Source of the DNA: Escherichia coli O127:H6 str. E2348/69
GTDB lineage: Bacteria; Pseudomonadota; Gammaproteobacteria; Enterobacterales; Enterobacteriaceae
DNA: 64,000 nucleotides
Direction: 5' to 3' (one strand)
Assembly: GCF_000026545.1 (NCBI RefSeq)
Contig: NC_011601.1
Shown: piece by piece, positions 24,237 to 37,730 of the stretch
Layout of the letters: every line of letters begins with the position of its first letter
Numbering within the stretch: the first letter of the stretch is position 1
Made by a program: the position numbers and the translations under genes
The notes under the pieces: model-generated
What the model was told of the DNA's origin: nothing
Database searches by the model: none
What the model saw: the letters and a program-made list of their open reading frames with translations, nothing else

Positions 24237-24259
24237 TTTCGTTTTTTAGTCATAAAAAA

Positions 24260-24285
24260 CCTGCCAGCGATGGCAGGTTTTTTTT
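24260..24285 (+). terminator. Rho-independent terminator downstream of typA
   Basis: Hairpin CCTGCCAGCGATGGCAGG followed by an 8-nt T-run. Confidence 0.8.
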
Positions 24286-24342
24286 GGCTTATGGAAAACA
24301 AAATCCGCTGAAATTCCCAGCGGATTTTCCGAAGTTTCAATT

Positions 24343-25131
24343 TCAGGATACTTCTTGCTCGGCAACCACCAGTTCAACATTCTCTTCACTTAACAACTGG
24401 CAGAAAGAATTGGGAGGTGGGGCATCAGTAAAAAAAGCCCTGACATTCCGTGCATTGCCAATTGAAACGGCAGCAGACGCGGTAAACTTCGTATGATCGG
24501 CCACTAACAATGTATTCCGCGCATGTTTAATCATCGTTCTCGCGACTAACGCTTCATTGACATCAAATTCCAGCAGGGTGCCGTCATGTTCAATGGCACC
24601 TATACTGGTGATTAAATAATCTGCGCGGAAGCCTTCAATAAAATCCACGGCTCCTGGGCCGATAATCCCACCGTTATGAGCGCGTAAAGTGCCTCCCGGC
24701 ACCATCACTTCAATATCCTGATTCTTATAAAGAATCTGTGCCACACGCAGGCTATTAGTGATAATGCGTAAATCACGCCGGTTGAGTAATGCCCTGGCAA
24801 CGGCTTCTACGGTTGTACCGATGGTGATAAAGACGGTACAGCGTTCGGGAAGGTAATCGGCGACTGCCTCAGCGATCGCCCGTTTCTCGGCGGTGAGCGA
24901 AAGTTCCCGTTGCTCAAAAGCGGTATTCATGACGCTGGAGACGCGCCCGGCCCCTCCATGATGACGGGTGATCAAGCCCTGCTCACTGAGTTTTCGGATA
25001 TCCCGGCGCACGGTTTGCGTTGAAACATCCAGCAGTTGTGCCAGTTCTTCAATATTCATATAACCGCGTTCTGCGATTAGATGAACGAGTTGGTCATGGC
25101 GTGGATTACCTGTCACTGCGATGATACTCAT
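24343..25131 (-). CDS. DeoR-family transcriptional repressor, CsqR/YihW-like
   Basis: 262-aa ORF with N-terminal HTH (LLDVSTQTVRRDIRKLSEQGLI) and DeoR C-terminal sugar-phosphate binding domain; similar to, but clearly diverged from, E. coli K-12 YihW as I recall it. Confidence 0.8.
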   Translation of the reverse strand: MSIIAVTGNPRHDQLVHLIAERGYMNIEELAQLLDVSTQTVRRDIRKLSEQGLITRHHGGAGRVSSVMNTAFEQRELSLTAEKRAIAEAVADYLPERCTVFITIGTTVEAVARALLNRRDLRIITNSLRVAQILYKNQDIEVMVPGGTLRAHNGGIIGPGAVDFIEGFRADYLITSIGAIEHDGTLLEFDVNEALVARTMIKHARNTLLVADHTKFTASAAVSIGNARNVRAFFTDAPPPNSFCQLLSEENVELVVAEQEVS

Positions 25132-25170
25132 GAATACTCCCTTGCCCCTCCTCGGTAGATGTTTACCATT

Positions 25171-26067
25171 TTACGCATAAAGTGACAAAAATGATTCGGT
25201 TTGCTCACGATTAGGAATGCCGGCCCGACCGCCAGGCTGGGTACATTTCATCGCGGCAACCGCACTGGCAAAACGAATAGCCTCTTTTGTTGGCATTTTT
25301 TCTGCCAACGCTACCGCGAGTGCGCCGTGAAAAACATCGCCTGCTCCAGTGGTATCAACCACATTGACAGAAAATGCCTCCTGTTGACACAAATGACCAT
25401 CTTCAATCCACAACGATCCTTCAGAACCCAGCGTAACATACACTTTACCTGCTGTTTGTGTCGTTGCCTGGAACAAACCTTCTTCAGGTGACTGCAGGCC
25501 AGTCATGCGTTTCAGCCCTGGTGTTGAGAACACGGCGTGATCGGCAAGCGCGACAAGTGGAGAAATATCCTGCGGTGTCATATCGGCGTCTAAAAGCGTT
25601 GTCACACCCGCAAGGCGCGCTAGCGAGAATGCTTTTTCAGTACCGCTATGCCAGCGAACATCGGCCAGAATCAGATCATAACGAGAGAAATCGATCGCTT
25701 CTAACCATTCGGCATCAGTACCGAGATCAGGACTTGGATAATTAACGATAATCCGTTCGCCATGCTGATCAACGAGGATCGCTGATTGCGACGAACGGGC
25801 GTTAGGATATCGGCGGCAAAATGCGGTATTGACGCCCCAACCCTCAAGTTCTGCAAGTAAGGTATTTCCACAACTGTCATCGCCGACGCGACCGATGAAA
25901 TCAACCTCCACGCCAAGCTTTGCGATTGCAACAGCGGCTGTTGCTGCCGGGCCGCCACCAATCTCAAGATAATGATTTGCCTGATATTTCCCGCCACCCT
26001 CCGGCAGAGTGGGCAAAGAATAAATTCTGTCCTGAACTGTGATACCCACGCATGCAATTCTGGTCAT
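25171..26067 (-). CDS. PfkB-family sugar kinase, YihV (sulfofructose kinase)-like
   Basis: Ribokinase/PfkB motifs ([12 protein letters not shown] near the C-terminus); 298 aa from the internal ATG at 26067 ([11 protein letters not shown]...); the longer 315-aa track ORF would overlap the divergent neighbour. Confidence 0.8.
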
Positions 26068-26239
26068 ATTTGTCTTGTCCTGTTTAATTTTGTCGTCTTT
26101 GGTCAATTTAAATGACACAAATGATCAAATTAGTGATGCGTGTCGTGTTTTTGAACATAAATTACAAATATGCTCAAAAACAGACGAAAACGAATTTTCA
26201 ATTGTCATTATTTTGTCAATGTCAGACAGGAGAGTATTC

Positions 26240-27118
26240 ATGGCAACCATTGCATTTCTCGGGCTGGGGCAGATGGGTAGCCCAATGGCTAACAATCTAT
26301 TGCAAAAAGGGCATTCATTGCAGGTATTTGATGTCAATACACAGGCCGTCGATGCGCTAGTTACGCAGGGGGCCACTGCGGCACAAACCCCAGCGGAAGC
26401 GGCAGCAAGCGCTGAATTTATCATCACTATGCTTCCCAATGGGGACATTGTTCGACAGGTGCTGTTGGGGGAAAAAGGCGTCTGTGAAACTGTTTCATCT
26501 GACGCGTTATTGATTGATATGTCGACTATTCATCCCTTACAGACCGATGCATTAATACGGGAATTACAAGAAAAAGGCATCAATATGATGGACGCCCCCG
26601 TGGGCAGAACGTCAGTGAATGCGATTGATGGCACATTGCTGATTTTAGCGGGCGGCACTGATGAGCAGATTGCGCGTGCACGCCCGATTCTCATGTGCAT
26701 GGGTAATGAGCTGGTCGAGGCTGGCGGCCCAGGAATGGGGATCCGCGTGAAGCTAATTAACAACTATATGAGCATTGCGCTTAATGCGCTGTCCTCCGAA
26801 GCCGCTGTGTTATGTGAGTCACTGGGATTAAATCTTGATGTCGCAATTAAGGTGATGAGTGGTACGGCAGCAGGGAAAGGACATTTTACGACCACCTGGC
26901 CTGGCAAAGTGCTGAAAGGCGATCTTTCTCCCGCCTTCATGGTGGACCTGGCATTGAAAGATCTGCGTATTGCAGTTGACGTCGCTCGGGAAACGGGGGC
27001 GCCGCTCAATATGGGGATTGCAGCAGAAAGTTATTACGCCGCAGCAAGTCAAGACGGCAAAGGGCGGCAGGACTGGAGCGCCCTGCTAAATCAGGTTCGC
27101 CAGCAGGCTGGTCTTTAA
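26240..27118 (+). CDS. NAD(P)-dependent beta-hydroxyacid dehydrogenase, YihU (sulfolactaldehyde reductase)-like
   Basis: Rossmann motif at the N-terminus ([17 protein letters not shown]) typical of the HIBADH/GarR/YihU family; ATG at 26240 preceded by an AGGAGAG Shine-Dalgarno. The 359-aa track ORF is an upstream extension. Confidence 0.8.
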
Positions 27119-27142
27119 TTTTATCTATTAACAGGAGTTTCT

Positions 27143-28030
27143 ATGTCATCCCACTTCACCCCATTTACGCTGAAAGATATCTCCCGCCCAGGTGGTGGAT
27201 TCGCCATGTTAGCTGTCGATCAGCGTGAGGCCATGCGCCTGATGTTTGCGGCAGCAGGGCAGCCAAAACCCATCGCCGACAGTGTACTCACCGATTTTAA
27301 AGTTGCCGCGACCCGAATCCTTTCTCCTTATGCTTCTGCCGTTCTGGCGGATAAACAATTTTGTCTTGAACAAATAGTCGAGCAGGGCGCTGTGGCTAAT
27401 TCTTGCGGCCTGATTGTCGCTGCCGATCTTTTTATCCCAGGTAATGGCATCCCGGTTGATAGCGTTGAAATAGATATGTCCGTCGACCCGCATAAAGCCC
27501 GTGAAATGGGGGCTAAGGCAATGAAATTACTTGTACTCTGGCGTGAAGATGAACCCGCAGAGGAACGTCTGGCAATGGTTGATAAATTTGTTCGTCGCTG
27601 CCGTAGTGCCGGGCTGGTTAGCATTATTGAACCTGTGGTGCGTCCACCTCGTCGCGGTTGGGACTTTGATCGTGAAAGCGCCATTGTTGCCGCCGCCGCA
27701 GAGCTTGGTGGAACAGAGGCTGATCTTTACAAAGCCGAGATGCCATTAGGGGGCAAAGGCGATGAAAAAACCTTACTTGCCGCCTGTCAGCAACTTAACG
27801 ATCAGATGAAGATGCCGTGGGTAATTCTTTCTTCTGGCGTTGATGCCGATATTTTTGGCCGTGCAGTAAGTATTGCCATGAAAGGTGGTGCGTCGGGCTT
27901 CCTGGCTGGACGAGCGGTTTGGGCGTCGGTTGTTGGTGCACAAGATCCACAAACCATGCTGCGCGATGTCTCCGTTCCACGCTTGCAACGGCTGGCTGAA
28001 ATTGTCGATGAAGGTATCGCGCAACGCTAA
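27143..28030 (+). CDS. Class I aldolase, YihT (sulfofructose-phosphate aldolase)/LacD-like
   Basis: 295-aa ORF (…[15 protein letters not shown]…, IEPVVRPP) homologous to YihT/tagatose-bisphosphate aldolase; diverged from the K-12 YihT sequence as I recall it. Confidence 0.8.
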
Positions 28031-28062
28031 TCCCCTATGGATATCGATTCTGGAGAATAACA

Positions 28063-29073
28063 ATGGATAAAATTACCCAGGTTTTATTTTCAGATATTGG
28101 GAAAGTCACCACTCAATATGTTGAAGTACCACACCAGCAACTTAAACCGCACGAAGTACGGATTGCGCCCGTGTTCTACGGGATATGCGGTTCGGATCTG
28201 CATGTTCTGAAAGGCGGTCATCCGTTTGCCAAACCGCCTGTCGTCCCCGGTCATGAAATTGCAGCGCGCGTTACGGAAGTGGGCAGCGACGTTAAAAATG
28301 TACAGCCGGGCGATCATGTTGTGGTCGATCCCATCATGGCTTGCATGGAATGCCGAGCCTGCAAAGCAGGACGTTTTAATCTTTGTGAACCACCGCAGGT
28401 TGCTGGTTTTCGCGCACCGGGCTTTGCTCGCTCACAACACATTGTTCCTGCGCGTAATTGCCATGTCGCACCAGCCTCTTTACCGCTAAAAGTGTTGGCC
28501 TTTGCCGAACCGGCGGCTTGTGCTCGTCACTGCGTTAACCGAATGCCGAAAGCTTCTCTGGAAAGCGTACTGGTGATTGGTGCCGGAACGATAGGCTTAT
28601 CCATCGTGCAGGCACTGCGCATTATGGGGGCAGGTAAGATTACCGTGATTGAACCTGACGCTGCCAAACGCGCGCTGGCGTTAAAACTGGGCGCAGCAGA
28701 AGTTTGGGCACCAGGTGAGCTGGCCGCAGATGTGCGATTTACGGGGGCGATTGATGTCGTTGCAGCGCAGGCCACGCTTAACGATGCATGTACCCGTGTA
28801 TATGCCGGAGGCACCGTCGTGTGCATGGGCGTACCAAGTGGGCCGCGTGAAATACCATTACCGATGATGCAACGTTTCGAGCGTGACTTGCTCAACTCTG
28901 GCATGTACATCCCTGAAGATTTCGATGCTGTTATCGAATGGCTGGCGGATGGGCGGTTTGATACCAGTGAACTGGTTACCGATTTATTTGCCATTGAGGA
29001 TGCAGCGGCGGCATTCGAACGCGCGCAGCAAAATGACTCCATAAAGGTCATGCTGCAATTTGCGCCGGAATGA
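28063..29073 (+). CDS. Zn-dependent medium-chain alcohol/polyol dehydrogenase (sorbitol/threonine dehydrogenase-like)
   Basis: 336-aa ORF with catalytic-zinc motifs GICGSDLH and PGHE, structural-zinc Cys cluster (CMECRACKAGRFNLC) and Rossmann GAGTIG. Confidence 0.8.
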   Translation: MDKITQVLFSDIGKVTTQYVEVPHQQLKPHEVRIAPVFYGICGSDLHVLKGGHPFAKPPVVPGHEIAARVTEVGSDVKNVQPGDHVVVDPIMACMECRACKAGRFNLCEPPQVAGFRAPGFARSQHIVPARNCHVAPASLPLKVLAFAEPAACARHCVNRMPKASLESVLVIGAGTIGLSIVQALRIMGAGKITVIEPDAAKRALALKLGAAEVWAPGELAADVRFTGAIDVVAAQATLNDACTRVYAGGTVVCMGVPSGPREIPLPMMQRFERDLLNSGMYIPEDFDAVIEWLADGRFDTSELVTDLFAIEDAAAAFERAQQNDSIKVMLQFAPE

Positions 29074-29142
29074 TTTTCTAAATCTCTGTCTGGCGCTGCG
29101 TCACGTCAGCGCCACCCTACAACAATTAAAAAGGACACTGCG

Positions 29143-30576
29143 ATGAGTCAAATCACCAGTCCTGAAACTTATTCAATTAGTCGGCCACAGGACGTAATTG
29201 ATATTGTTAATAAGAACTCTGCAATCAACACCAGTATCGGCGTTATTTTTATTGCTTTGGGCGGCATATTGATTGATGCCTACCAGGCGGCGATGGTGGG
29301 GTTTGGTAATAAATACATTGCCGCTCAATTCGGCATTTCGCCGGGTCTTGCTGCAACCGTCAATGCATCAGTATTAATCGCCGCGTTAATTGGCGGTTTA
29401 TTAGCGAACCGAGTAATAAACCGCTTTGGGCAAAAGCGGGCATTTATTATTGGCATGGGGCTGTGCACCATCGGTGCTGCAGCGGTAGCTATTGCTCCCA
29501 GTATCTGGTGGGTGCTGGTGTGCCGCGTCATCATGGGCTTTGGTTTAGGCATCGACTTCCCTTTGGCAACCAATGCCGTGGCAGAGCTTCGTGGTTCAAC
29601 GTCGAAGAAAACCGGAACGTCGGTCAACCTCTGGCAAATGGCCTGGTATGTTTCGACAACCGTTGTTTATTTGGTGCTTTTGCCGCTGCTTCTGTCGGGT
29701 ATCGCTGAAGAACAATTGTGGCGTTACGGAATATTCATCGGAGCTATTTTTGCAGTCATCTTCATGATTTTGCGTTACTTCTTTATTGGTGAATCCGCAA
29801 TGTGGGCCGCACGCGTCGGGCGTTACCAGGAAGCGTGCGACATTCTGGGAAAACGTTATGGTGTTCAGGCTCGCGTTGCGGCATCGGGTACAACAGAAGC
29901 GAAATTCTCGGAAAAAGCAGAGAATAAATACAGTGGTGGATATGGCATCTTATTTAATGATCGTTACCGCAAACGCACCATTCTTGGCTGTGTCGTGGCA
30001 ACCATGCAGGCGTGGCAATATAACGCCGTAGGTGTTTATCTTCCTCTTACGTTGGCGGGAATAATAAGTGGCGGGCTTACTGGCGCGTTGACCGGTTCTG
30101 CCGTCGTGAATGCCCTTTGTGGGGTGACAGGCGGGATGATCGGCTCGTTTATTCTCCAACGACTGGGTACTCGCCGACAGTCGATGTATGGATTTGCTGT
30201 TGTGACCTTAGCATTGCTGTCGTTAGGCGCACTGGCAACGACTAATCCCTGGCTGTCTTTAGGGTTATTGGGATCAATTATTTTCTTCCATTCAGCGGGT
30301 CCTGGTGGGCTGGGCATGACCATTGCCACACTCTCTTATCCTCCCGCTATTCGCCCTACTGGGGTCGGATTTGCCCGCGCTATTATGCGCACAGGGGCAA
30401 TTGCAGGACTCATTTTCTGGCCGATGCTGTGGGGTGCGTTGAAAACTGAAGCGTTTTACTGGTTGGCAATCGTGCCATTCCTGGGATTCCTGACCTGTGT
30501 ATTGATTAATTGGGAACCACTGGGTGCAAATGTTGATGCTGAGGACGCAGAGGTTCTGGCTGAATTGAAGAAATAA
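29143..30576 (+). CDS. MFS transporter (12 predicted transmembrane segments)
   Basis: 477-aa highly hydrophobic ORF with MFS-like loop motifs (ANRVINRFGQKRAF); substrate unknown. Confidence 0.7.
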   Translation: MSQITSPETYSISRPQDVIDIVNKNSAINTSIGVIFIALGGILIDAYQAAMVGFGNKYIAAQFGISPGLAATVNASVLIAALIGGLLANRVINRFGQKRAFIIGMGLCTIGAAAVAIAPSIWWVLVCRVIMGFGLGIDFPLATNAVAELRGSTSKKTGTSVNLWQMAWYVSTTVVYLVLLPLLLSGIAEEQLWRYGIFIGAIFAVIFMILRYFFIGESAMWAARVGRYQEACDILGKRYGVQARVAASGTTEAKFSEKAENKYSGGYGILFNDRYRKRTILGCVVATMQAWQYNAVGVYLPLTLAGIISGGLTGALTGSAVVNALCGVTGGMIGSFILQRLGTRRQSMYGFAVVTLALLSLGALATTNPWLSLGLLGSIIFFHSAGPGGLGMTIATLSYPPAIRPTGVGFARAIMRTGAIAGLIFWPMLWGALKTEAFYWLAIVPFLGFLTCVLINWEPLGANVDAEDAEVLAELKK

Positions 30577-30579
30577 TTT

Positions 30580-30609
30580 AATGCGCATCGGTTTAAGCCG
30601 ATGCGCATT
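30580..30609. other. Perfect 12-bp-stem inverted repeat between the two MFS genes (possible terminator or operator)
   Basis: AATGCGCATCGG-TTTAAG-CCGATGCGCATT directly after the stop codon of the first MFS gene; no strong T-run follows. Confidence 0.5.
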
Positions 30610-30674
30610 AATTCAAACTGCCCACGTTTAGTGGTTCGTATCCCAGATTTCTCGCCTACCAGGAGAGGAAAATT

Positions 30675-32024
30675 ATGTCTGAAAAGTTACCCGCACCGCG
30701 TGAAGGGCTTTCCGGTAAAGCCATGAGACGTGTCGTTATGGGCAGTTTCGCAGGCGCGTTAATGGAATGGTATGACTTCTTTATTTTTGGCACGGCAGCA
30801 GGACTGGTATTTGCACCGCTGTTTTATCCAGACAGCGATCCTTTTATAGGTCTTATAGCTTCCTTTGCGACCTTTGGTGTCGGTTTTCTGACTCGTCCTT
30901 TAGGTGGCATCGTCTTTGGTCATTTTGGCGATAAAATAGGGCGAAAAATAACGCTTATCTGGACGTTGGCTATTGTCGGTTGCTCCACATTTTTGATTGG
31001 TTTTATTCCGACGCATCAGGAAATTGGGATCTGGGCACCGCTCATATTAATGGTGCTACGTTTAATTCAGGGCTTTGGTCTTGGTGGCGAGTACGGCGGA
31101 GCGGCATTGATGACCATAGAATCAGCGCCCGAATCCCGACGCGGATTTTTAGGTTCACTCCCGCAAACGGCTGCGTCTGTGGGTATTATGCTGGCAACCG
31201 GTATTTTTGCTCTCTGTAACCATTTTCTGACTTCGGAGCAGTTTCTCTCCTGGGGATGGCGCATTCCGTTTTGGCTTTCTGCGGTGATGTTGATCGTTGG
31301 GCTGTTTATCCGCCTGCATACCGAAGAAACGCTGGATTTTCAAAAGCAAAAAACGACGAATAATAAAGAAAAGCCCGTTCCTCCGTTGATTGAATTATTC
31401 AAAAAACATCCACGAAATATTTTATTGGCACTGGGTGCGAGGCTGGCGGAAAGTGTCTCCTCTAATATTATTAACGCCTTTGGTATTGTCTATATTTCCA
31501 GCCAATTAGCATTGTCGCGAGATATTCCCCTGACGGGTATGTTGATTGCCTCGGCGATCGGTATTTTCAGTTGTCCATTGGTTGGATGGTTATCAGATCG
31601 TATAGGTCAAAAAAGTCTGTATTTGTCGGGAGCAGGATTTTGTGTCCTGTTCGCGTTTCCTTTCTTCTTATTACTGGATAGCAAAAGTACGCTCATCATC
31701 TGGTGCAGTATGATCCTCGGCTACAACTTAGGTCCGACGATGATGTTTGCCGTGCAGCCAACACTTTTCACCCGCATGTTCGGTACCAAAGTACGATATA
31801 CCGGCCTTTCTTTTGCTTATCAATTTTCCGCGATTCTTGGCGGACTAAGCCCCCTTATCGCCTCAAGTTTGCTGGCGCTAGGGGGAGGAAAACCGTGGTA
31901 TGTCGCTCTGTTTTTATTTGCTGTCTCAGTTCTTTCCTTTGTTTGCGTCTGGCTGATTGAGCCGACCGATGAACAAGAAACCGCTTCTTACTGCTACATC
32001 AGGGAACAATCTCATGAAAACTGA
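30675..32024 (+). CDS. MFS metabolite:H+ symporter (MHS family, ProP/KgtP-like)
   Basis: 449-aa ORF with the characteristic MHS motif GHFGDKIGRKITL and 12 hydrophobic segments. Confidence 0.75.
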   Translation: MSEKLPAPREGLSGKAMRRVVMGSFAGALMEWYDFFIFGTAAGLVFAPLFYPDSDPFIGLIASFATFGVGFLTRPLGGIVFGHFGDKIGRKITLIWTLAIVGCSTFLIGFIPTHQEIGIWAPLILMVLRLIQGFGLGGEYGGAALMTIESAPESRRGFLGSLPQTAASVGIMLATGIFALCNHFLTSEQFLSWGWRIPFWLSAVMLIVGLFIRLHTEETLDFQKQKTTNNKEKPVPPLIELFKKHPRNILLALGARLAESVSSNIINAFGIVYISSQLALSRDIPLTGMLIASAIGIFSCPLVGWLSDRIGQKSLYLSGAGFCVLFAFPFFLLLDSKSTLIIWCSMILGYNLGPTMMFAVQPTLFTRMFGTKVRYTGLSFAYQFSAILGGLSPLIASSLLALGGGKPWYVALFLFAVSVLSFVCVWLIEPTDEQETASYCYIREQSHEN

Positions 32025-32901
32025 ACGAAAAAACGAGCATTACCTGGCGCTACAACAGGCGTTTGACGCGCCATGGCCTGGGCCTGTAGGAGAGTTAGTG
32101 ATGCTGGAAAAAGGCAATATTCACCTGCAGATTTATCCGCATGATGGTGCCAGGATAACCTCGTTAAAGGCATTTGGTTCTGAAGTATTACGCCAATGGC
32201 AGCCGCAGCGCAGAGCTTTTCAGTATAGCTGTTTCCCAATGGTGCCGTGGGCAGGGCGACTGGGGAATGCGACGCTGAATGCTGGTGGGCAATGTTATTC
32301 TTTACCCGCCAATAAACCACCACATGCGTTGCATGGTATGGCTTGTTACTCAACGTGGGAAATCATCGACAAAACAGCAGATTCCCTGACTTTACGTATG
32401 CCCCTGGCTTCACCGTGGCCCTGGCAAGGGGAAGTGATTCAGACTTTTTTGCTGGAGAACGATGCGCTGGTTTTGCAACTGGAAGTCCATTCATATGCCG
32501 ATACATTCCCGGCCTCCGCAGGCTGGCATCCGTGGTTTGCGAAAAAGCTGACTCCGCAAAATACAGAATCGTTGCAGGTGCTTTTTGATGCGGACTGGCA
32601 AGAAGAAGCGGGTAGTGATGAACTGCCAACTGGAAATCGTATCTCTCCTCAAGTTGGTCCCTGGGATGACTGTTTTGGTTTTTATGACGGGGTGAAGGTT
32701 AAGTTACTGTGGCCTGGTAAACTCGCGATGACCATGACCTCTTCTGCAAACAGTCTGGTGGTATTTGATAAACAGCCCGATGCCACCTGTATTAACCCAC
32801 TGACTCAGGCACCTAACGCAATAAATCTAACGCCGGAATTTGTGACACCAGATAAGCCGCTGGTCATCGAAACTCGTTGGCAATTTACACCTGAATCTTA
32901 A
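32014..32901 (+). CDS. Aldose 1-epimerase (mutarotase) family protein, YihR-like
   Basis: About 295 aa from the ATG at 32014 (MKTERKNEHYLALQQ...) preceded by an AGGGAA Shine-Dalgarno; start overlaps the stop of the upstream MFS gene (ATGAAAACTGA), suggesting translational coupling. Mutarotase-like fold is inferred from sequence character only. Confidence 0.65.
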   Translation: MKTERKNEHYLALQQAFDAPWPGPVGELVMLEKGNIHLQIYPHDGARITSLKAFGSEVLRQWQPQRRAFQYSCFPMVPWAGRLGNATLNAGGQCYSLPANKPPHALHGMACYSTWEIIDKTADSLTLRMPLASPWPWQGEVIQTFLLENDALVLQLEVHSYADTFPASAGWHPWFAKKLTPQNTESLQVLFDADWQEEAGSDELPTGNRISPQVGPWDDCFGFYDGVKVKLLWPGKLAMTMTSSANSLVVFDKQPDATCINPLTQAPNAINLTPEFVTPDKPLVIETRWQFTPES

Positions 32902-33041
32902 CCATTCATCTATTGCGAAAAAGCCAGTGAAATTACTCTGCTTTTTCGCAATCAGCATCACAAGATTACCCTTATTGCCACATAGCCAAACCCATCCTTT
33001 CCCGCTACAGTTAATTTCTTGTGGCGCGAAAGGAGGCAAAA

Positions 33042-35990: not shown

Positions 35991-36911
35991 TTACCTTCCC
36001 GCTCTCCAGGCAACATCCCGTAGCGCCGATCGCGCAGCCTCACTGATACCACCTAACTGAAAAAATCCGTGGATAACGCCAAGGTAGCGTTGGCAGGTGC
36101 ATTGCACTCCTTGCCCTGTCATGCGGTGATACAACGCTTCACCTTCATCGCAAAGTGGGTCGTATTCAGCGGTAATGATATGTACAGGTGGCAATCCATT
36201 GAAATCATTGCGCCAAATAGGGCTGGCTTCAGGATGCCTGCGTTCAATGCCTGGCAGGTACATCTCAAAGCCGCTCAGTAAAGTGTCGCGTGTGATGATG
36301 TAATCGTGACCATTGCGTATGTAGCTTTCGAAATGCGCAGTCGCATCAAGCATAGGATAAATTAAGATGAGTTGTGCTGGTTGCCACTCGCCAGCACGCT
36401 TCAATCGCAAAGCAGTTACCTGCGCCAGATGCCCTCCCGCACTGTCACCGGCAAGAGTTATTCGTTGTTTATCAACGCCGAGTCGTTCGGCGTGTTGCCG
36501 GACTAATTCTGCACCTCGTTGTGCATCATCATGGGCGGCGGGGAAAGTATGTTCCGGTGCCAGCCGATACTGGACGGCAATAATCCGACATTGCCCGTAA
36601 TAGGCTAACTGGCGCAGCTGGTTGTCGTGAGTTGCGAACCCGCCGCTAACAAAACAGCCACCGTAGTAATAAATTATCGTCGGGAGTAATGTCGGGGCAT
36701 TCAGCGGTGACACTATTCGTAAGGTCATCCCTTCAAGTTCGATAGTCTGAATATCTACCCGCGTTTCTGTCTCACCCGCAAGGACAGCGCTGGCGATATA
36801 GCCCTCTCTGCGCTGCGTAATACTTTGTTGGCGCGATGAGGGGCGACCCGCAGCGATAAACTCTTCGACTAACTCTGCAATTCCTTTTTCCAGTGCCATA
36901 GTAGAACTCAT
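35991..36911 (-). CDS. Alpha/beta-hydrolase fold-3 esterase/lipase (HSL family)
   Basis: Oxyanion-hole region YYYGGCFVSGG and nucleophile elbow GDSAGG; catalytic Asp/His candidates downstream. Start ambiguous (GTG at 36941, ATG at 36911 or 36899). Not in the K-12 yiiD-fdhE interval as I recall it. Confidence 0.75.
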   Translation of the reverse strand: MSSTMALEKGIAELVEEFIAAGRPSSRQQSITQRREGYIASAVLAGETETRVDIQTIELEGMTLRIVSPLNAPTLLPTIIYYYGGCFVSGGFATHDNQLRQLAYYGQCRIIAVQYRLAPEHTFPAAHDDAQRGAELVRQHAERLGVDKQRITLAGDSAGGHLAQVTALRLKRAGEWQPAQLILIYPMLDATAHFESYIRNGHDYIITRDTLLSGFEMYLPGIERRHPEASPIWRNDFNGLPPVHIITAEYDPLCDEGEALYHRMTGQGVQCTCQRYLGVIHGFFQLGGISEAARSALRDVAWRAGR

Positions 36912-37127
36912 TTTGCTGTATGAATGTACAGTTTTATACACCCGTTTTTACTGGATGGATACAGGGAAATTCACGGGCGTGAAAAATCTGGAAAGCGCCT
37001 CGCAAATGTAAAGACAAACCCGGCAGAGACGTGGTTTTGCTGGAGCACTATCAGTAAGCTAGTGGTTTCAAGGGTACGTCAATGACGTACAAAAAGGATT
37101 GTTACTCTAAGCCAATGGCGTATAATT

Positions 37128-37439
37128 ATGCTCTTCATCGAAACGGAAATTTTTACTGAAGATGTTCAAAAACTGCTGACCGACGATGAATTCAGTCGTT
37201 TTCAGTTTTTCCTGGCCTTGAATCCTGACTATGGTGAGGTAATACCTGAAACTGGTGGGTTAAGAAAGGTTCGATGGGTGTCAGGAGGAAAGGGGAAACG
37301 TGCTGGTGTCAGGGTTATTTACTTTCATCAGGTTAAACATTATGAGATCAGATTACTGCTTATTTATCGTAAGGGTATTAAAGATGATCTGTCTCCCCAG
37401 GAAAAAGCAATGCTCCGGTTGTTAAATACGAGGTGGTAA
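37128..37439 (+). CDS. Type II toxin, HigB-2-like (RelE/ParE superfamily)
   Basis: 103-aa ORF resembling Vibrio cholerae HigB-2 (…GDVIPETGGLRKVRWVSGGKGKRAGVRVIYF…); toxin encoded upstream of an HTH antitoxin with stop and start abutting (TAA-ATG). Confidence 0.8.
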   Translation: MLFIETEIFTEDVQKLLTDDEFSRFQFFLALNPDYGEVIPETGGLRKVRWVSGGKGKRAGVRVIYFHQVKHYEIRLLLIYRKGIKDDLSPQEKAMLRLLNTRW

Positions 37440-37730
37440 ATGGATAAGGCACTTTTTGAGCGGTTGACTCACAGCATGGCCCAGATGAATGAAATTATTG
37501 AAGGAACGCGACAGCCTTCGCGGACTTTTGAAGTTGATGCTATGAAAATCAAAGAAATACGCCGCGCTTCAGGGTTGTCACAATCTAAATTTGCCGATCT
37601 TATTTCTGTAAGCGTAGACACGTTGCGTAACTGGGAGCAGGGGCGACGTTCACCGACCGGGCCTGCAAAGGCTTTGCTGCGAGCGATTGCCAATGATCCG
37701 CAACATGTGCTGCAAGCACTTAACCGTTAG
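37440..37730 (+). CDS. Type II antitoxin, HigA-2-like HTH (XRE family)
   Basis: 96-aa ORF with XRE-type helix-turn-helix (IRRASGLSQSKFADLISVSVDTLRNWEQGRR) immediately after the toxin gene. Confidence 0.8.
   Translation: MDKALFERLTHSMAQMNEIIEGTRQPSRTFEVDAMKIKEIRRASGLSQSKFADLISVSVDTLRNWEQGRRSPTGPAKALLRAIANDPQHVLQALNR

Follow-up and report, generated by a model that had tools for sequence, protein, structure and literature searches.

A candidate isomerase-independent sulfoglycolysis locus in place of the K-12 yih genes in Escherichia coli O127:H6 E2348/69

The locus

Escherichia coli O127:H6 strain E2348/69 carries eight intact genes between typA and yihX, at positions 24343-32901 of the window, by which we mean the whole 64-kb stretch of DNA analysed here. 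Four of them encode homologues of K-12 proteins of sulfo-EMP, the sulfo-Embden-Meyerhof-Parnas pathway for sulfoquinovose (SQ). The other four encode a Zn-dependent dehydrogenase (Zn-ADH below), two transporters of the major facilitator superfamily (MFS) and an epimerase-like protein. An earlier note, made from the sequence without database searches, had drawn the limits of this cluster. They coincide exactly with eight open reading frames, and the RefSeq annotation gives the same genes. The features are as follows.

24343-25131, minus strand: DeoR/GlpR-family regulator, homologue of CsqR (YihW), divergent to the catabolic operon
25171-26067, minus strand: PfkB-family kinase, homologue of YihV
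26068-26239: divergent promoter/operator region between the kinase and reductase genes
26240-27118, plus strand: HIBADH-family reductase, YihU-like, called sulfolactaldehyde 3-reductase by RefSeq
27143-28030, plus strand: class I aldolase (DeoC/LacD family), homologue of YihT
28063-29073, plus strand: Zn-dependent medium-chain dehydrogenase of the polyol-dehydrogenase subfamily (WP_000357981.1)
29143-30576, plus strand: MFS transporter 1 (MFS1)
30578-30611: palindrome with a perfect 14-bp stem between the MFS1 and MFS2 genes
30675-32024, plus strand: MFS transporter 2 (MFS2)
32014-32901, plus strand: aldose-1-epimerase-family protein

The six plus-strand genes make up an operon with intergenic gaps of 24, 32, 69, 98 and -11 bp. 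K-12 MG1655 has yihLMN-ompL-yihOPQRSTUVW between the same flanking genes, so that a variant segment of 8.7 kb (window 24289-32974) stands in for 15.2 kb of K-12. Homology to K-12 ends 52 bp past typA and picks up again shortly before yihX. The flanks are 98.8% and 96.7% identical to K-12, and the four shared genes have about 65-67% DNA identity and an inverted orientation. At the protein level the identities are 71% for CsqR (260 aa), 67% for YihV, 72% for YihU and 67% for YihT. When all K-12 yih proteins were searched against the whole window with tblastn, no homologue of YihS, YihQ, YihO, YihP, OmpL or YihLMN was found. The earlier note was thus right on both counts: the core enzymes are diverged sulfo-EMP homologues (67-72% identity to CsqR, YihV, YihU and YihT), and the isomerase, the sulfoquinovosidase, the GPH transporters and the porin are missing from the window.

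Some DNA features can be recorded here. Two back-to-back hairpins with T runs (window 24254-24328) lie in the 106-bp gap between the convergent typA and regulator genes. Since K-12 homology ends at 24288, just past the typA-side hairpin, the recombination junction would lie between the two. The palindrome at 30578-30611, TTAATGCGCATCGG...CCGATGCGCATTAA, is within the 98 bp that separate the MFS1 gene from the MFS2 gene. It may fold into a hairpin inside the operon and so bring about differential mRNA stability or partial termination. An inverted repeat seen by eye at 32912-32952, ATTGCGAAAAAGC...GCTTTTTCGCAAT, is just 3' of the epimerase-like stop codon in the variant-specific segment. It has no T run after it, and may be the operon terminator.

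The core enzymes

Sharma et al. 2021 (PMC8006165) describe the specificity residues of the three K-12 enzymes. YihV has a sulfonate triad K27-N109-R138, the catalytic D244 and the sugar ligands D13 and S95. The YihT pocket consists of the Schiff-base K193, S226/S227 and R253, and that of YihU of N174, S178 and the R123 backbone. Aligned to YihV, the window kinase keeps K27, N109, R138, D244, D13 and S95. The aldolase keeps K197, S230/S231 and R257 (equivalent to K193, S226/S227 and R253), and the reductase keeps R123, K171, N174 and S178. These sulfonate-pocket residues are also kept in most orthologues from the variant clusters described below. The reductase scores 581.6 bits against the NCBIfam equivalog NF012005 (sulfolactaldehyde 3-reductase), far above its cut-off of 348. 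We therefore predict that the kinase, aldolase and reductase act on sulfofructose (SF), sulfofructose-1-phosphate (SFP) and sulfolactaldehyde (SLA) respectively; this is very probable on conserved residues.

The regulator matches the NCBIfam DeoR/GlpR models. The kinase/reductase intergenic region aligns with the K-12 yihV-yihU region, and blocks such as ATAAATTACAAATA...TCAAAAACAGAC are conserved. The alignment agrees with the cross-binding observed in published electrophoretic mobility shift assays (EMSAs; PMC12608037).

Of the features that define sulfo-EMP, the locus has a predicted SF kinase with the triad and D244, the SFP aldolase residues and an SLA-reductase equivalog. It does not have an SQ-SF isomerase of either type (YihS, PF07221, or SqvD, PF02952), the GH31 enzyme YihQ, YihO/YihP or a porin.

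Distribution and selection

The Zn-ADH was used as the query in a scan of one genome per species, and 21 loci with a clear relative were found. At all 21 the Zn-ADH gene is followed by MFS1, MFS2 and the epimerase-like gene in that order; three alphaproteobacterial loci have a reductase gene inserted after the first MFS gene and before the second. As far as the contig reaches, genes for a kinase, a reductase and an aldolase are also there. With the same set in 21 species representatives and further genomes, the gene arrangement is far beyond chance. In the genome-neighbourhood comparison that the earlier note had proposed, no YihS/SqvD-type isomerase or sulfoquinovosidase (YihQ) was found within 10 kb across some 25 related loci, and no GPH transporters or porin turned up in related loci either.

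The genera are Citrobacter, Phytobacter, Mixta, Erwinia, Enterobacter, Trabulsiella, Edaphovirga, Leminorella, Budvicia, Pantoea, Tenebrionibacter, Vibrio, Roseospira and Pleomorphomonas, together with an alphaproteobacterial metagenome-assembled genome (MAG). The cluster of Rhodopseudomonas palustris consists of DeoR, PfkB, DeoC, ADH, MFS, reductase, MFS and epimerase. That of Streptomyces marincola differs in lacking the epimerase, and the cluster is also present in a Propionibacteriaceae MAG. More distant actinobacterial forms consist of PfkB, DeoC, ADH and MFS. One of these, in Streptomyces (L028, GCA_014205315.1, 3658-12486), has DeoR, PfkB, DeoC, TauE, a Zn-ADH with 43% identity and an MFS2-type transporter. 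Its neighbours are an aldehyde dehydrogenase gene and an enolase-superfamily gene, and insertion sequence elements are on both flanks. We suggest that it is an oxidative, sulfolactate-forming, mobile variant.

Within E. coli, megablast matches the segment in 1,384 of 5,426 complete genomes; in 1,325 of these the match spans 80% or more of the segment. For the K-12 yihO-yihS block, 3,881 genomes reach a coverage of at least 80%. These counts imply that the two forms are roughly alternative alleles of one locus, with the variant in about 24-25% of complete E. coli genomes, including those of the enteropathogenic E. coli (EPEC) strain E2348/69 and of the probiotic Nissle 1917. The E. coli variant proteins are 82-94% identical to those of the Citrobacter variant cluster versus 67-72% to K-12, so the variant is an old, separate lineage. 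Strain-specific indels are not limited to this site. Between fabY and yiiE (window ~35991-37730) E2348/69 has an alpha/beta hydrolase gene and two small adjacent open reading frames (one hypothetical, one NadS-family); the same interval in K-12 is an unannotated gap of about 850 bp.

Each of the eight genes is subject to purifying selection. When E2348/69 is compared with Escherichia sp. MOD1-EC7003, dN/dS is 0.02-0.09 in seven genes and reaches 0.16 in the epimerase-like gene; the Zn-ADH has the lowest value of the cluster. The comparison of MFS1 with Erwinia was excluded as a frame artefact. Against Citrobacter sp. R56 (L004) the dS of the cluster is about 1.5-2.7, and that of the adjacent typA is 0.55. 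This hints at a cluster history that is deeper than, or horizontally mixed relative to, that of the flanks.

The locus has been partly described before. Kaznadzey et al. 2025 (PMC12608037) distinguish a long cassette from a short yihTUVW cassette, the latter found in Nissle 1917 and enriched in pathogens. In short-cassette strains the orientation is reversed, and homologues of yihOPQRS are nowhere else in the genome. The Nissle YihW is 72% identical to K-12 CsqR and binds DNA more weakly than it does. In EMSAs it binds the kinase/reductase intergenic DNA and is released by SQ, and its binding at 37 degrees C is weak. The short cassette of Nissle 1917 was not differentially expressed on SQ, and the authors' conclusion was that the locus no longer takes part in sulfoquinovose breakdown. 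Neither the Zn-dehydrogenase nor the two MFS genes of this locus nor the epimerase-like gene is mentioned in their text. In their supplement these four extra genes (K8943_RS13585-13600 of Nissle by position) are not among the listed differentially expressed genes.

One could take this to mean that the locus is a truncated and decaying yihTUVW remnant beside unrelated genes. The name short cassette and the lack of a transcriptional response to SQ in Nissle 1917 (PMC12608037) would fit such a scenario. It does not make sense of the other observations. The eight genes are syntenic across several phyla, the six plus-strand genes have short or overlapping gaps, and every gene is under purifying selection. 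A DNA identity of 65-67% to K-12, together with the closer match of the four shared genes to the Citrobacter variant clusters (82-92% amino-acid identity), indicates an old lineage and not a recent deletion. Synteny, dN/dS and the short operon gaps rule the remnant out, and we give it next to no credence.

Exchange of the entry module

The strongest argument for the Zn-ADH module comes from clusters with another aldolase. The variant clusters of Leminorella, Budvicia and Vibrio have a class II aldolase instead of the class I enzyme. The Leminorella and Budvicia aldolases are 78% identical to YaSqiA of Yersinia aldovae, and the Vibrio aldolase is 57% identical. YaSqiA is an experimentally validated SFP aldolase (Sharma et al. 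2023, PMC10665668). The Leminorella aldolase also scores 500 bits against PDB entries 8Q58/8Q57. We take these to be the Hafnia/Yersinia SqiA structures, although the PDB names only a ketose-bisphosphate aldolase and KbaY.

The Y. aldovae cluster consists of a regulator, kinase, reductase, SqiA, mutarotase, PF02952 isomerase, GH31 sulfoquinovosidase, two GPH transporters and a KdgM porin. Leminorella and Budvicia share its left half, with identities of 81-82% for the regulator, 66-70% for the kinase, 75% for the reductase and 78% for the aldolase. After this shared half come the Zn-ADH, MFS1, MFS2 and the epimerase-like gene. K-12 and E2348/69 differ in a parallel way. The same exchange of an entry module around a constant core is thus found in two independent aldolase backgrounds. 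Since the swap is seen twice, we argue that the Zn-ADH module is a functional alternative for feeding the kinase.

The Zn-dehydrogenase

In an alignment of homologues the catalytic-Zn ligands C42, H64, E65 and E149 and the structural-Zn ligands C94, C97, C100 and C108 are invariant. A GxGxxG motif is at 173-178, with G173, G175 and G178 invariant, and E197 is found in at least 90% of the sequences. This acidic residue implies NAD rather than NADP. An AlphaFold2 model has a pLDDT (predicted local distance difference test score) of 95.6. The nearest folds are 4EJ6 (a putative Zn-dehydrogenase of Sinorhizobium), RspB, L-idonate 5-dehydrogenase and the whitefly ketose reductase. The others are L-arabinitol 4-dehydrogenase, YdjJ (5VM2), sorbitol dehydrogenase and galactitol-1-phosphate dehydrogenase. 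In PDB sequence and fold searches every solved relative is only 24-28% identical to the Zn-ADH, with TM scores of 0.89-0.91. Judging by the model, the Zn-ADH belongs structurally with the acyclic polyol/aldonate 2(5)-dehydrogenases.

This subfamily oxidises the secondary hydroxyl next to the terminal CH2OH of an acyclic polyol or aldonate to give a 2-ketose or 5-keto-aldonate. In a 2-ketose product the C1 hydroxyl is free, as a 1-kinase requires. Among the 33 closest homologues of the alignment, R117 and R271 are invariant. RspB, 4EJ6 and the ketose reductase, for which PDB alignments were printed, have no Arg at these positions. Both arginines lie in regions that, by comparison with sorbitol dehydrogenase structures, presumably line the substrate site, which we treat as a lead only.

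The Zn-ADH adjoins the kinase and aldolase at every one of 24 loci, which come from Enterobacterales, Vibrio, Alphaproteobacteria and Actinobacteria. Because the epimerase-like gene is dispensable in Actinobacteria, the Zn-ADH is the sole invariant candidate for the entry enzyme. A role for it in the metabolism of 2,3-dihydroxypropane-1-sulfonate (DHPS) was considered and rejected. The (S)-DHPS dehydrogenase HpsP (8WWD) is no closer to it than sorbitol or threonine dehydrogenases are, and the Zn-ADH persists in clusters that would oxidise SLA instead of reducing it.

Could the substrate carry no sulfonate at all? The enzymes from the yih lineage would then have been recruited to new chemistry on a 6-deoxy or other polyol or on a sugar acid. 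The nearest solved relatives of the Zn-ADH do act on carboxylated or neutral polyols, and YdjJ is among its fold neighbours. The ydj cluster of E. coli, which has a non-sulfonated substrate, is composed in a similar way (DeoR, PfkB, aldolase, Zn-dehydrogenases and two MFS transporters). The missing induction of the locus by SQ (PMC12608037) would also agree with this scenario. However, the kinase, aldolase and reductase keep all sulfonate-pocket residues, and the reductase is above the SLA-reductase cut-off. There is also the close tie to the validated SqiA, the TauE exporter in a distant version and the fact that SQ is still a ligand of the regulator in vitro (PMC12608037). We consider a non-sulfonated substrate very improbable. 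The earlier note had named a sulfonated or a 6-deoxy sugar alcohol as examples of the substrate; the first option is favoured here, and the second is disfavoured since every sulfonate-pocket residue is retained.

A third scenario keeps the sulfonate and changes the sugar. The substrate would be another sulfosugar stereoisomer or derivative (from sulfofucose or sulforhamnose, for example) or a sulfonated ketose other than SF, and the kinase and aldolase would act on an epimer such as sulfotagatose. The variant aldolases form a cross-phylum group of their own: the window aldolase is 73% identical to that of the R. palustris variant cluster versus 67% to K-12 YihT. LacD-family aldolases tolerate C3/C4 epimers, which also counts for this scenario. 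Rare sulfosugars are catabolised in nature (PMC12421959). In cluster 2 of Paracoccus wurundjeri the Zn-ADH MDP0926266, encoded with a PfkB kinase and a DeoC aldolase, is up on sulfofucose and does not oxidise SLA (PMC12421959). This cluster may be an independent case of the logic that combines a kinase, an aldolase and a Zn-dehydrogenase. MDP0926266, translated from the supplement, is only 27% identical to the window Zn-ADH, so it is not its orthologue. Furthermore, D13 and S95, with which the kinase binds SF at its C3 and C4 hydroxyls, are conserved, and the class II aldolases of Leminorella and Budvicia are 78% identical to an enzyme validated on SFP. A stereoisomer is therefore an improbable substrate.

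Transporters and epimerase-like protein

The two MFS transporters come from different subfamilies, as the earlier note had proposed. MFS1 has a weak likeness to aromatic-acid and sugar porters, and its NCBIfam matches are all below cut-off. MFS2 is of the metabolite:H+ symporter (MHS) family and resembles ShiA/KgtP; it scores 408 bits against the shikimate-transporter model and 404 bits against TIGR00883, both below cut-off. The families of both typically carry organic anions. MFS1 is found wherever the reductase is present and is missing in the single-MFS actinobacterial versions (L027 and L028). The sole MFS of these minimal clusters is of the MFS2 type (56% identity). Since a minimal cluster with one transporter keeps the MFS2 type, MFS2 would be the substrate importer. 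Since MFS1 travels with the reductase, it would be the DHPS exporter.

The epimerase-like protein matches Pfam PF01263 (E = 1.8e-21) and is 27% identical to YihR. Its HG, HP and DD motifs align with YihR, so that the His, His and Asp are kept. Near the C-terminus, at the position of the family's catalytic Glu, the motif reads CINP in E. coli, Citrobacter, Erwinia and Vibrio, and Phytobacter, Mixta and Trabulsiella also have Asn there. The Glu is kept (CVEP) in Leminorella, Pantoea, Roseospira and Pleomorphomonas, and Budvicia also has Glu. The equivalent catalytic base of Lactococcus lactis GalM is Glu304. The gene is absent from actinobacterial clusters. The idea that this protein is a hidden isomerase was rejected on these grounds: it is missing in Actinobacteria, and the catalytic Glu has become Asn in the E. 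coli/Citrobacter clade. Both facts make it an accessory protein.

A proposed isomerase-independent route into sulfo-EMP

We argue that the eight genes form a catabolic locus for a free sulfonated six-carbon compound, and that it works as an isomerase-independent variant of sulfo-EMP. We put the probability of this reading, which is built on sequence, at roughly one in two. The canonical entry module of porin, GPH transporters, sulfoquinovosidase, mutarotase and isomerase would have been replaced by two MFS transporters, an NAD+-dependent Zn-dehydrogenase and an accessory epimerase-like protein.

The route would run in six steps. The MHS-type MFS2 would import the anionic substrate. The Zn-ADH would then oxidise the hydroxyl next to the terminal CH2OH to give 6-deoxy-6-sulfofructose, as suggested by its subfamily and by its invariant adjacency to the kinase. 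The likeliest substrate for this would be 6-deoxy-6-sulfo-D-glucitol or 6-deoxy-6-sulfo-D-mannitol, or a close relative. The YihV-like kinase would form SFP, the YihT-like aldolase would cleave it to dihydroxyacetone phosphate (DHAP) and SLA, and the YihU-like reductase would convert SLA to DHPS. MFS1 would export the DHPS. Steps three to five are well supported as predictions from conserved specificity residues. The CsqR-like repressor would control the divergent promoters, and its natural inducer is probably something other than SQ itself. The TauE sulfonate/sulfite exporter and the aldehyde dehydrogenase in one distant actinobacterial version count in favour of this route. The earlier note had held that this gene set cannot run the canonical pathway and had suggested a different substrate, for example one that the Zn-dehydrogenase oxidises first, or a variant pathway. 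The polyol/aldonate-dehydrogenase fold and the 24 of 24 adjacency strengthen this.

It must be said that several observations weigh against this route. Full-text literature searches returned no record of a natural sulfonated hexitol, and a widespread cluster for a metabolite absent from the literature is uncomfortable. The mutarotase-like gene in most clusters suggests a reducing sugar more than an alditol. The alphaproteobacterial and actinobacterial kinases and reductases are non-orthologous to the E. coli proteins, with about 30% identity, and the alphaproteobacterial ones, which are those that were checked, do not have the K-N-R and N-S residues. The aldolases of these versions are 51-74% identical to the window aldolase, and the link to sulfonates there comes from the aldolase and, once, from TauE. 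Finally, Nissle 1917 was reported to grow on SQ comparably to K-12, although growth was low for both (PMC12608037). Baseline expression is not given there and the repressor is weak, so the lack of differential expression could hide a constitutive use of SQ.

This makes SQ itself the main rival. The locus would scavenge free SQ released by other organisms, and the Zn-ADH would replace YihS. There are two ways for this to work. An unlinked aldose reductase could convert SQ to sulfoquinovitol, which the Zn-ADH would oxidise to SF in the oxidoreductive manner of fungi. Alternatively, the Zn-ADH could be a redox-neutral isomerase that oxidises C2 and reduces C1 with bound NAD. The epimerase-like protein would be an SQ mutarotase. 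Nissle 1917 is reported to grow on SQ without yihS and yihQ, SQ frees its YihW in vitro, and the weak binding at 37 degrees C could mean constitutive expression (PMC12608037). A mutarotase-family gene is in most clusters, the ubiquity of SQ matches their broad ecological spread, and the absence of a glycosidase and porin fits the uptake of a free monosaccharide. Each of the two ways has a problem. Among the roughly 25 clusters, none has a conserved aldose reductase. The redox isomerisation would be unprecedented: the medium-chain dehydrogenase family is not known to include a redox aldose-ketose isomerase, and the Zn-ADH showed no nicotinoprotein-type features that were noted. The epimerase-like gene is missing from the actinobacterial clusters, and in E. 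coli its product has Asn in place of the catalytic Glu. SQ growth was low in both strains, with no induction (PMC12608037). We consider SQ an unlikely substrate, and the isomerase-independent use of another sulfonated six-carbon compound remains our preferred reading. It is fairly probable that one of two things holds: either a sulfonated hexitol, such as 6-deoxy-6-sulfo-glucitol, is a widespread and unrecognised natural metabolite for which gut, soil and aquatic bacteria have an operon of their own, or the Zn-ADH takes SQ to SF by a redox route free of an isomerase.

Comparison with known systems

The short yih cassette of Nissle 1917 is the same locus as the window cluster, with the same position and orientation and a regulator 71-72% identical to CsqR. 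The 2025 study (PMC12608037) treats it as a four-gene truncated form, but it is an eight-gene unit that is selected and conserved beyond E. coli. That the locus exists is therefore already known, since it is annotated and partly described. Its eight-gene nature, wide distribution and likely role are new. The conclusion of that study has to be set against a complete, selected operon common to Citrobacter, Erwinia, Vibrio, Rhodopseudomonas and Streptomyces.

A January 2026 review of SQ catabolism covers sulfo-EMP, EMP2, ED, TAL, TK, ASMO and ASDO and has no Zn-dehydrogenase entry. A 2023 survey of SFP aldolase neighbourhoods removed aldolases outside recognised sulfo-EMP groupings. The earlier note would have given way if this were the common, characterised form of a known pathway. 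Common it is, in about 24-25% of E. coli and in many genera, but it is no characterised pathway.

While the K-12 pathway is regarded as the route of E. coli, roughly one complete genome in four has the variant locus in its place. If the substrate is a hexitol, or if SQ enters by the redox route, the locus would be a new entry branch into sulfoglycolysis. It would also explain how one in four E. coli strains, with Nissle 1917, EPEC and many extraintestinal pathogenic E. coli among them, deal with sulfosugars. A major part of the sulfur cycle consists of sulfoquinovose and its products, and DHPS in the gut feeds sulfide-producing Bilophila. Identifying the substrate would establish a new entry reaction, possibly reveal a new natural sulfonate, and clarify a metabolic difference between E. 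coli lineages.

The Zn-ADH resembles the branch of sorbitol dehydrogenase, the RspB-type L-gulonate 5-dehydrogenase, IdnD, GatD and YdjJ in its fold, both Zn sites and the NAD motif, and it has a GHNPFAK-like motif in common with RspB. It differs from RspB, 4EJ6 and the ketose reductase in having R117 and R271, and identity is low. By analogy, the oxidation of L-gulonate to D-fructuronate by an RspB-type enzyme is a formal parallel to the proposed step from sulfo-hexitol to SF.

With the hybrid sulfo-EMP1/2 clusters, represented by Y. aldovae SqiA (PMC10665668), the variant clusters share the regulator, kinase, reductase and SqiA, and the aldolase class is interchangeable. Unlike Y. aldovae they have no isomerase, GH31 enzyme, GPH transporters or KdgM porin.

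The closest comparison is the sulfo-EMP pathway of K-12 (Denger et al. 2014; PMC8006165). In the window cluster the isomerase, YihQ, the GPH transporters and the porin have given way to the Zn-dehydrogenase, two MFS transporters from other subfamilies and a distantly related epimerase-like protein. The locus is without two defining features of the pathway, the isomerase and the sulfoquinovosidase, and resembles it from sulfofructose onward. The two share a chromosomal slot, four homologues, the pocket residues and the divergent promoter region, and both are predicted to end in the same products, DHAP and DHPS.

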